Shown piece after piece: positions 54,001-57,000 of a DNA stretch of 64,000 nt. The DNA comes from a virus. Location: the IMG/VR virus record IMGVR_UViG_3300031521_000042, positions 1-64,000 of that record; one strand, 5' to 3'. A program made the position numbers. Each line of letters begins with the position of its first letter. Position 1 is the first letter of the stretch.

Positions 54001-57000
54001 AAAATATGATTTACCAATATTTTTTAATCAGAAGTTATTTGAAGAATATATAGGAGATAAATGTAATCATGATTTATATTCAGACTATCAAAAATATGAT
54101 TGTAATATGGATAAAAAAGAAGACAGGACATATTACAGTATATTTGATAGAGATTTAGAGTGGCAAGAAGCTATCAAATGTTGGGACGAAGAAGACGAAG
54201 GTGCAATTGATTGGAACAAAAATAATAATGTAGATAATAATACATATCAATTAATAAAAACTTATTTAGATACAACAAAATATTTATGTGTGTACAAAGA
54301 TTATAAACTTAAGGGAACATTTATAGATGGTAAATTAGATGATGTACAACAATTATGTAAATATGATAGCAATTTAAATTATGATATTTTAGAAGCATTA
54401 TACAATAAACTAGAACTTCAAATGACTTCATACGAAAAGAGACAAGAAAAAAGAGATGAAACTGATAGAATAGCTAGAGAACTTAGACAACAGAAGCAAA
54501 AGAGATACGAAGAAGCATATAATCTTTGGAAAACTTCATATCAACCATACTCTATGGGTAAATATAAATTTGAAGATATTTGGGATGAATATGGAGAAAT
54601 TAATAATTATAAGTTATGGAGAGAGTTATGTGACTTTGTAGATTCCCAAAGAAAAACACAACAGGACAGATGGAAAGATTATGATTTTGGAGGGATGTTT
54701 GGAAGTGGTTCTATAACTGTTAAAGAAGAAGATAAGTCAACATATAAACAGTTTTATAGAAAATTAGCGATGGAGTTTCATCCTGATAAACTTGGTGGTG
54801 ATACTAAGGCAATGCAATTAGTAAATGAGCTAAAGAAAAACTGGGGAATATAATAGAAATGGACTGAATAAATGTGGATAAATTTATAAGACTTTAGATA
54901 TTATTAAATTAATTCTAAAGTCTTTTATTTTTATGCAATTAAAGGATATAAAAACTATTGACATATAATAGTAAAAGAGTATAATAGAAATTGTAAAGAA
55001 GTTAAAAACAAAATTTAGATAAAGAATTTCATGCGAATAAGATACTGAGTGCTACGGTGTCTTATTTTTTATATCTAAAAATAGTAAAAGACAAGTAATA
55101 TATAAATAGTCTACCATCTCACGTTAGTGCTAGTAACGTATATACAAGACCTTATAAAATTACTTATCTTTATATTAAACTATCTTATCATTTGTAATTT
55201 TAGTTAAATGGAAGCTTAACTAAATATGTACTTAATAATCGGCTCTACACAGTTAAGTAGTGCAGTATAATATATTAATTTAACTGTAACTAATTCTTTA
55301 TCATTAGAAATTGAGTTTAAGAATTTCATGCTTATCGCCTCCCTTGTCCATTGTTATTCGAGATGGCAATATAATTATAACAATGTATGTAAGCAATTAC
55401 AATTTAATGGAAAATAAATTTGGAAAATATGTAAATATTGTAACATTCCCTTACAAATGGTATAATTAGAAAAATACTATTTAATAGGGGTTGGATAATA
55501 ATGAATAAAATATTTAAAAAGTTTATATCAATAGGAATAATAGCAAGTTCAATAAGTATATTACCTTTAACTGGGGCAAGTGCAGAATGGAAACAAGACA
55601 CTAAAGGTTGGTGGAATGCTGAGGATAGTTCGTGGTCTAAAGGTTGGAAACAAATAGATGGCAAATGGTATTATTTTGGACAAGACGGGTATATGGCTCA
55701 TGATACAAATATAGGTGGATATCAAATTGATAATAATGGCGTTTGGGTTCAGAACACTTCAAATACTGCAAATTCCAATAATACTAGTACAAATGTAAAT
55801 AACATTAATTCAAATAACACTACTAATGTGACTAATAATATTAATAATGGCATTATAATTAATGAAGATATAAAAAACACAGCTTCTATAAATCAAAATA
55901 ATAATATAGATGCAACAAATACTACGGGTAATAAAACATTTGACGGAACTAATGGGTTTAAAGATTTAGGCAACAATCAATATGTATATTATGAAAATGG
56001 ACAAATGTTAAAAAACACTTGGAAAAAATTTGATGAAGGTTATAGACATTTTAACAAAGATGGTTATATGGATTTCAATAAAATTATAGACGGGTTAAGA
56101 TTGGATGTAAAAGGATTATACCCTTTAAATAACAAAACTAATGATTTGATAAAAGACATTTTTATGACATTGAATCCTTATGTAACATATTTAGATAAAT
56201 TTGGAGCTGGTGATTTAAGTTATATCATTGGCACGTATGATGTATTTGGAATAAGGTATGAAGTTCAATATACAGATGTTTATGATTCTGCTAAAGATGG
56301 AATTATAATATCTATAGATAATTCATATGGCAGTAAGAATAGTCATTGGAGTGATATGAATAATAGTAATTTTAGTGGTGAGAAAATAATAAAAATTGGA
56401 AAATATATATCAAGAATCAATTAAGGTTAATGAGTATAAAATATGTAAGACTAGCGAGTTATTTGCTAGTCTTTTTGTTATTATTGCTAAAATATTTATC
56501 ATAAAAGTATTCAAATGAATTAATAAGATTTTGTTTATCATATTCTTGTAGAATAGCTATACCTCCTTGATAATATATATTACTCAAATATGTTATCATT
56601 GGTATAAATTCATTTCCCAATGTAGTATGAGATAAAGCTTCATTTAAGAAATTAGAATGTTCAAATATAAATGAATATAAAGGTATTGAATTTAGATTAA
56701 TAGATGCTTTCCCTAAAAATCTAGTTAAATATTCTTGTAAATTATCAGGGAAAGTATAATTAGTTAGTAAAATTAATAAATTAGAATAAAATTTTTGTAC
56801 TTCTTGTTCAATTAATATGTTTCTTTCTACGCCTTTTAATCTAGATGCCATATTATTTTGATTACTATTGTTTATTATATCTTCAAATTTAAAAGCACTT
56901 AGATTAATTTCACTAGATGCTTGTTTTTTCCAAACAATATTATAGCCTAATATTTGAGCAATTTCTAAGACTTCATTATATTTAATAGTGCCTCTTGTTA

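Follow-up and report, generated by a model that had tools for sequence, protein, structure and literature searches.

A candidate type I toxin-antitoxin-like module of par-like RNA design on a Clostridium-type phage-plasmid

Results

A small open reading frame faces a short terminated RNA gene

The DNA analyzed here, called the window, is a stretch of 64,000 nucleotides (positions 1 to 64,000; GC content 26%) from the 75.9-kb IMG/VR virus record IMGVR_UViG_3300031521_000042, and it carries at 54958-55402 a candidate type I toxin-antitoxin (TA)-like locus. On the minus strand lies an open reading frame (ORF) for a 37-amino acid (aa) peptide, the toxin candidate (55216-55329), with the Shine-Dalgarno (SD) sequence GGGAGG (55338-55343, minus strand) 8 nt upstream of its ATG. 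The promoter assigned to this ORF, TTGTAA-17-TATAAT with a TG, occupies 55402-55374 on the minus strand and matches the consensus at 10 of 12 positions. Facing it on the plus strand is a promoter that matches the consensus at all 12 positions (TTGACA-16-TATAAT, 54958-54985), followed by a predicted small RNA (sRNA) of about 79 nt (~54992-55070, plus strand), with its start placed by the -10 box and its end by the T-run of an intrinsic terminator. The terminator hairpin (55035-55067, plus strand), with the loop AGTGCTA at 55048-55054, is the sole terminator found within 1 kb (shuffle mean 0.2), and on the minus strand it lacks a U-tract. The sRNA would thus end 145 bp short of the ORF stop at 55216. 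A first-pass annotation, made by a model from the sequence alone, had described convergent SigA promoters and a plus-strand RNA of about 80 nt ending 145 bp before the ORF, and the promoter and terminator predictions bear out both statements.

Because the two transcripts converge, identity between segments of the same DNA strand amounts to complementarity between the two RNAs. One such pair is a direct repeat: copy 1 (55011-55034, plus strand) lies in the sRNA body and is antisense to the peptide start region, and copy 2 (55308-55331, minus strand), to which the sRNA body would bind, spans the AUG plus the first seven codons. The copies are identical at 21 of 24 positions and share an exact 13-nt core over the ATG. 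The second pair is formed by the terminator loop: the heptamer AGTGCTA recurs at 55126-55132, in the 7-nt loop of a hairpin with a 6-bp stem (P3; 55121-55139, minus strand) in the 3' untranslated region (UTR) of the peptide mRNA.

Homologous loci keep the plan and differ in sequence

The neighboring gene for a J-domain protein with DUF3102 led to a contig, L003, that has the same arrangement in very different sequence. Two conserved words, one composed of the mRNA -10 box and 5' end and the other of the sRNA -10 box and 5' end, were searched in IMG/VR, and the mRNA word retrieved nine homologous loci. Six full variants are distinguished: A (the window), B (L003), C with its forms C1 and C2 (L005, L012, and copies), D (L010), E (L020), and F (L021). 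They are strongly diverged, and the plan is constant: convergent consensus promoters, a terminated sRNA of about 80 nt, and a small ORF. Both hexamers of the sRNA promoter are invariant in 7/7 aligned sequences while the spacer diverges. All variants lie in viral or metagenome contigs, mostly from metagenomes that also hold the window or its relatives.

The first-pass annotation had also named tBLASTn as a way to co-conserved repeats. Searches by tblastn with the peptides against plasmid and phage collections gave nothing meaningful, and the six loci with co-conserved repeats came from the neighboring-gene comparison and the conserved words. With the locus as query, blastn ("distant") yielded no match in GenBank phages or PLSDB plasmids beyond a 50-nt AT-rich chance match, and an exact 45-nt sRNA word had no match in viral contigs. 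The sRNA pattern matched three times in GTDB genome contigs, all false (without terminator, hairpin, or ORF, two of them in GC-rich DNA), and 26 times in JGI metagenome contigs, where the true matches were merely B, C1, C2, and D again; neither scan produced a new variant. Neither RNA matched any family in the current release of Rfam at E<=10. At the end of one metagenome contig (L046:7-80), an sRNA-like 5' segment is followed by AAATTTCATGCGATAA without the terminator hairpin, and this copy may be decayed or rearranged.

Within the sRNA, only the 5' segment AAUUGUARARAAGYUA (54992-55008 in the window) is invariant in all variants, and the remainder diverges. An mRNA partner for this segment was sought across the variants, and the search gave inconsistent 7-8-mers, none of them conserved. 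The segment might be recognized by a protein or an RNase, or reflect a constraint on the initial transcribed sequence.

Two complementary sites co-vary across six loci

Comparison of each sRNA with the mRNA region of its own variant places the longest same-strand repeats at two sites that are homologous in all six loci and vary in sequence from variant to variant. The words shared by the sRNA terminator loop and the P3 loop are AGTGCTA in A, AATGTCGG in B, AGTTCCAGT in C, GTGCAAA in D, ATTGGTACT in E, and TGAGTACCA in F. Those shared by the sRNA body and the start region are, in the same order, AAGAATTTCATGC, GTTTCATATGTAC, AATGTTTCATGC, TCTACAAAG..TTTTATTTTA, ACAAAGC.TTTTATTTTA, and AAGAGT.TCATGC. 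Each locus has one interrupted repeat, and the start codon is inside the paired mRNA segment in 6/6 variants.

We calculated duplex energies restricted to the two sites for cognate and non-cognate combinations of variants, and ran a longest-common-substring version of the permutation test alongside. For the loops, cognate pairs average -11.9 kcal/mol vs -4.1 kcal/mol for non-cognate pairs, and the cognate assignment ranks first among all 720 permutations (1/720). For the body and start region, the values are -19.6 vs -9.2 kcal/mol, and the cognate assignment ties for best (2/720 permutations), because D and E share a body. Matrices of whole-length RNAduplex energies did not separate cognate from non-cognate pairs, since long AT-rich sequences pair promiscuously, and the site-restricted tests were used instead. 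The RNA antitoxin is thus predicted to pair with the toxin mRNA at two co-varying complementary sites. The first-pass annotation had proposed both contacts from the window, repeat pairing over the peptide AUG and loop-loop kissing through AGTGCTA, and the six diverged loci uphold them.

The peptide mRNA has a structured 3' UTR joined to its 5' end

The predicted mRNA is about 290 nt long in the window and ~230-300 nt across the family. Its predicted 5' end, GCCAUCUC (55360-55367, minus strand), is complementary to GAGAUGGU (55113-55120, minus strand), which directly adjoins P3. In the RNAalifold consensus, these strands form P1, a helix of 8 bp that joins the mRNA 5' end to the nucleotides just 3' of P3. 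The 5' end GCCAUCU is invariant in seven sequences and is followed by C or U; the changes in P1 are one compensatory exchange of C-G for U-A in variant B and two U.G pairs. In P3, 97.6% of cells are paired, three pairs show compensatory changes, and the loop is 7 nt long in 5/6 variants. On the mRNA strand, the P3 loop opens with CUAG, a YUNR-type motif, and is complementary to the sRNA terminator loop. A third helix, P2 (55087-55171, minus strand; arms 55159-55171 and 55087-55099), encloses P3 and the 3' strand of P1; its 6-bp core is 100% paired in seven sequences with two compensatory pairs, and a U-rich tract follows on the mRNA strand. P2 and this tract are a possible mRNA terminator. P1 and P2 cross each other.

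Several pairs in the mRNA helices, among them a U.G pair in P2, can form only in the minus-strand RNA, as G.U; read from the plus strand they would be C.A. The minus-strand RNA is therefore the selected molecule. In the sRNA, five pairs of the terminator stem carry compensatory changes across variants. Pairing of the mRNA 5' CCATCTC with a 3' GAGATGG, as originally noted in the window, corresponds to the covariation-backed P1 helix. Its alternative pairing with the ribosome-binding region, also noted there, appears in the single-sequence folds of A, F, and C1, where the 5' end pairs with the SD region with partners that differ among variants. The consensus fold has a small 4-bp hairpin onto GGGA of the SD, and the SD itself is kept in all variants.

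The predicted ends of the mRNA and the sRNA do not overlap. Read-through of the mRNA into an overlap with the sRNA may occur, the mRNA 3' end being predicted only, and the presence of a loop dedicated to the contact, that of P3, speaks for pairing independent of 3' overlap.

These comparisons bear on the simplest alternative, that the repeats arose by chance in AT-rich intergenic DNA near an unrelated small ORF and that there is no functional RNA pair. Short repeats and promoter-like hexamers are indeed common in DNA of 26% GC, shuffled sequences reach repeats of 8 nt on average, and whole-length duplex energies are uninformative. Against chance are the 13-nt exact repeat between the sRNA and the mRNA region of the window alone, equaled in 2/1000 dinucleotide shuffles, the two repeat pairs that co-vary at matching positions of the six variants (1/720 and 2/720), and the compensatory changes in four helices. 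A chance origin is hardly credible and is effectively refuted by the comparative data.

A conserved reading frame encodes a small, variably hydrophobic peptide

Homologous ORFs of 26-40 aa stand behind a strong GGAGG in all variants, and peptides of this length on a short mRNA agree with the size generally expected of type I TA systems (20-60 aa). Aligned, the peptides are polar or basic at the N-terminus and hydrophobic in the C-terminal half, and they share a D/N-rich turn. The first-pass annotation had called the window product a 37-aa hydrophobic peptide; the ORF stands, and "hydrophobic" was an overstatement, since the grand average of hydropathy (GRAVY) is 0.54 and the best 15-aa Kyte-Doolittle window is 1.43, the weakest of the family. 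On the latter measure the relatives score 1.9-2.9 (family range 1.4-2.9), and C, D, and E have clear transmembrane (TM)-like segments.

The ORFs of variants A and F, both 37 aa, differ at 31/111 nt (28%) with the frame intact; 14 codons are identical, eight differ only synonymously, and 15 are replacements. A 182-nt contig of a bioreactor metatranscriptome spans 55159-55336 at ~95% identity, and the listed differences in the ORF are three conservative residue changes and two silent codons. Sequence-library matches of this kind are assembled contigs, from which RNA ends and strand are not readable.

The first-pass reading that the peptide family was unrecognized has held up: the six peptides had no match in Pfam or NCBIfam at E<=10, and nothing meaningful in PHROGs or the ESM Atlas. 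A profile search of 1.84 billion protein representatives added one further 37-aa relative, P0001; a search for related loci with its 60-aa form found none.

The locus lies in an accessory island of a phage-plasmid

The element encodes a Rep_3 initiator, a TubZ-like GTPase, an FtsK-like protein, and tail proteins. The plasmid maintenance set lies within 6356-12483 and comprises the FtsK-like gene (6356-7762), the TubZ-like gene (8229-9365), a small upstream ORF that is possibly TubR (9352-9648), a MerR-type gene, and the Rep_3 gene (11293-12483). All TubZ relatives (27-33% identity) are on plasmids of Clostridium perfringens, Clostridium botulinum, and Clostridium novyi and on the plasmid-prophages c-st and D-1873. 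Judged by gene content, the record is a Clostridium-type phage-plasmid of the c-st type, because it combines the Rep_3, TubZ-like, and FtsK-like genes and their Clostridium plasmid relatives with tail genes. An addiction module would make sense on such a low-copy replicon. The window sequence is present in more than 20 peat metagenomes. Elsewhere in the window, a long non-coding stretch holds a match to the Rfam skipping-rope RNA (70 bits) and a tRNA, at 26831-26909 and 27375-27459.

The surroundings of the module are an accessory island with Rha, the J-domain protein (DUF3102), a helix-turn-helix (HTH) gene, and a secreted choline-binding-repeat protein, the gene of which adjoins the module (55501-56424). 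A gene for such a cell-wall-binding protein adjoins the module in variants A-E, upstream or downstream and in varying order and orientation, which fits an autonomous cassette; the association may be a functional link or mere shared synteny. It also belongs to the case for a non-toxin reading, in which the peptide is a small phage membrane protein, such as a lysis-timing, envelope, or cell-wall-binding accessory factor, the level of which is tuned by the sRNA. The only moderate hydrophobicity of the window peptide and its lack of homology to known toxins agree with this reading. The varying position of the module relative to the cell-wall-binding gene, the clear TM-like segments of C, D, and E, and a design known from type I TA systems speak against it. 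Elements of that design are recognition at two sites, an mRNA with a locked 5' end, an SD that may be sequestered, and convergent promoters that are strong and constitutive. We regard a non-toxin function as quite improbable.

The composition of the island bears on a further alternative, in which the RNA mechanism is the same and the role lies in conflict between phages or between phage and host, by abortive infection or by exclusion of superinfecting phages or related phage-plasmids, rather than in post-segregational killing. The island is moron-like in its Rha, HTH, and secreted cell-wall-binding genes, and orthogonal specificity variants occur within single metagenomes, as inter-element competition would favor; metagenome 3300031521 holds C1, C2, and D. 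Several roles have been discussed for type I TA modules on Clostridioides difficile prophages (PMC6563280). No trigger or sensor is evident at the locus, and the low-copy plasmid lifestyle implied by Rep_3 and TubZ offers a direct rationale for addiction. The two roles can coexist; a role in conflict instead of addiction seems rather unlikely.

In one contig from a peat metagenome, 54934 is followed directly by 55401 and the entire module is absent; as one side of the joint is just 23 nt long, it was not relied on. Another contig has a further variant of the start region in a loose end at 55355. Together they hint at presence/absence polymorphism and at further specificity classes. In L003, the J-domain gene and the par-like locus are separated by a second, unrelated small-ORF/antisense module (5590-6035). 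Its minus-strand ORF encodes 47 aa from the ATG, with a hydrophobic N-terminal half and a charged tail; a minus-strand terminator is at 5655-5632, and a plus-strand promoter (5591-5619) reads antisense into the 3' end of the ORF. The layout resembles that of a classic type I TA module with 3' overlap, and the window holds no counterpart of this second module.

Discussion

Resemblance to and differences from characterized systems

The closest parallel in RNA design is the par locus of pAD1 in Enterococcus faecalis, which has convergent promoters, direct repeats at initiation codons, first contact through a terminator loop, and the mRNA elements 5'-UH and 5'-SL (PMC7472228). The use of direct repeats by Fst/par systems, cited as precedent in the first-pass annotation, agrees with that account. 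Like par, the phage-plasmid locus has convergent promoters, conserved in seven sequences, and a short sRNA encoded 3' of the toxin-candidate ORF; its repeats are transcribed in opposite directions so that the sRNA would pair over the initiation codon; and first contact would be made by the sRNA terminator loop, with a YUNR-like motif in the mRNA loop in 4/6 variants. P1, which would hold the extreme mRNA 5' end in a helix near the 3' contact site, resembles 5'-UH, and the SD-region pairing in predicted folds, the partners of which vary among variants, may be a counterpart of 5'-SL. In par, too, repeat sequences are poorly conserved and give the system its specificity (PMC7472228). Unlike Fst, the peptide has no PXXXG motif, no charged C-terminal tail, and no Pfam Fst match. 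Unlike par, the locus has a single interrupted repeat instead of DRa plus DRb, its transcripts appear not to overlap, and there is no shared bidirectional terminator: P3 is a separate hairpin with an unrelated stem, and its loop alone matches the sRNA terminator loop. Because an Fst-type peptide and a shared terminator are missing, we do not assign the locus to the Fst family and file it as a new type I TA-like family that would work in the manner of par.

Other systems share parts of the design. In bsrG/SR4, borne by the Bacillus subtilis SPbeta prophage, a 5'-3' helix closes the toxin mRNA, the antitoxin terminator loop contacts a loop in the 3' part, and translation initiation is affected (PMC3834814). 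The phage-plasmid locus is likewise phage-borne, with a 5'-3' closing helix and a predicted contact between terminator loop and mRNA 3' loop. SR4, a cis-antisense RNA, overlaps its target perfectly over a long stretch and acts indirectly on the SD, whereas the complementarity described here consists of two short dispersed segments, the sRNA would bind directly over the AUG, and the peptides show no similarity. In SprA1/SprA1AS (PepA1) of Staphylococcus aureus, an antitoxin encoded 3' of the toxin gene represses through the initiation region, outside the overlap (T1TAdb paper). Position and target region are similar in our locus; the 3'-end overlap of the RNAs and the Fst-family peptide PepA1 are features of SprA1 that it does not share. 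The CD-RCd type I modules of Clostridioides difficile (phiCD630-1, CRISPR-adjacent) are on clostridial prophages and contribute to the maintenance of mobile elements (PMC6563280). Their antitoxins are overlapping cis-antisense RNAs, unlike the sRNA described here, and searching phage and plasmid collections by blastn and tblastn showed no link to CD-RCd modules. The hok/Sok system of plasmid R1 also locks its toxin mRNA by a 5'-3' fold-back and serves a low-copy extrachromosomal element through post-segregational killing. It is a Gram-negative system in which Sok overlaps the 5' leader and the mok reading frame. Pairing of 5' and 3' mRNA ends, a low-copy extrachromosomal element, and an expected role in post-segregational killing are common to both; unlike hok, the window locus has no visible leader ORF, and its peptide is unrelated.

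A model for the module

The features and comparisons above suggest the following model. A strong constitutive promoter would produce the mRNA for the membrane-type peptide, and the convergent consensus promoter would produce the sRNA, which would stop before the mRNA region. The sRNA terminator loop would first kiss the P3 loop in the mRNA 3' UTR. With P3 stacked on P1, the helix made by the extreme mRNA 5' end, the kiss would set the sRNA body beside the translation start, and the body would then pair through the direct repeat over the AUG and first codons and block ribosome binding. Both targets would be presented together, though 190 nt apart, because the mRNA 5' end adjoins the kissing hairpin. 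Comparison supports two convergent, separately promoted RNAs, two co-evolving sites, and a 5' end beside the kissing hairpin; that the kiss nucleates binding and that body pairing blocks initiation is what we infer from this arrangement. If the peptide is toxic to the membrane and the sRNA less stable than the mRNA, loss of the phage-plasmid would release translation, and cured cells would be killed or arrested by post-segregational killing. Such an addiction role, which the first-pass annotation had proposed, is plausible given the Rep_3/TubZ phage-plasmid setting.

Several points weigh against interpreting the locus as a type I TA-like module. The searches recovered the family only from a narrow set of metagenomic phage contigs. 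The window peptide is the least hydrophobic of the family, so the window copy could be weak. In variants D (L010:1704-1805) and E (L020:6959-7057), the codon at the start position, 8 nt downstream of GGAGG, reads ATA, not ATG, in a frame that is open and conserved. That frame is backed by two synonymous D-E differences in the first seven codons and by a C-terminus shared with B; the ATA could be a weak non-canonical start, or translation could start at the in-frame TTG codon 8, giving a 26-aa product of the same length as that of variant B. Weak initiation would suit a toxin. P1 and P2, which cross, would be either alternative conformers or a pseudoknot, and the mRNA 3' end is itself a prediction. 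From RNA libraries there is the single 182-nt contig of a 95% relative, a weak hint that the relative is transcribed, which could also reflect DNA carry-over.

Taking these points together, we put the probability at about 0.68 that the locus is a type I TA-like module with a par-like RNA design on a Clostridium-type phage-plasmid. The regulatory RNA pair is very probably real, and the toxin and addiction reading is likely. As far as comparative sequence analysis can establish it, a new family of RNA-controlled type I TA-like modules is well supported.

A broader interpretation is offered tentatively. The family may carry two short, freely evolving "address" segments, the kissing loop of 7-9 nt and the start-codon repeat of 12-24 nt, that define at least six mutually orthogonal classes co-circulating in the same peat communities. 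Diversifying selection might then act to escape cross-neutralization by the antitoxins of competitors, the addresses might serve as an incompatibility or exclusion code, and P1 and P2 might form a hok-like switch between inert and translatable mRNA. We consider this extension doubtful as a whole.

Validated type I TA systems in Clostridia were limited to C. difficile according to a 2019 review (PMC6563280), and T1TAdb lists 24 type I families and counts 13 antitoxin families in Rfam. The locus described here would fall outside those 24 families and, by the Rfam scan, outside the 13 antitoxin families. Six orthogonal sRNA/mRNA pairs on one scaffold would provide a natural test bed for the evolution of specificity in kissing loops and seeds, for the way in which a toxin mRNA closed by 5'-3' pairing offers two distant target sites side by side, and for whether RNA-based addiction modules sort competing phage-plasmids into compatibility groups. 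The apparent reuse of par-type RNA logic with an unrelated peptide would also bear on the origin of type I systems.

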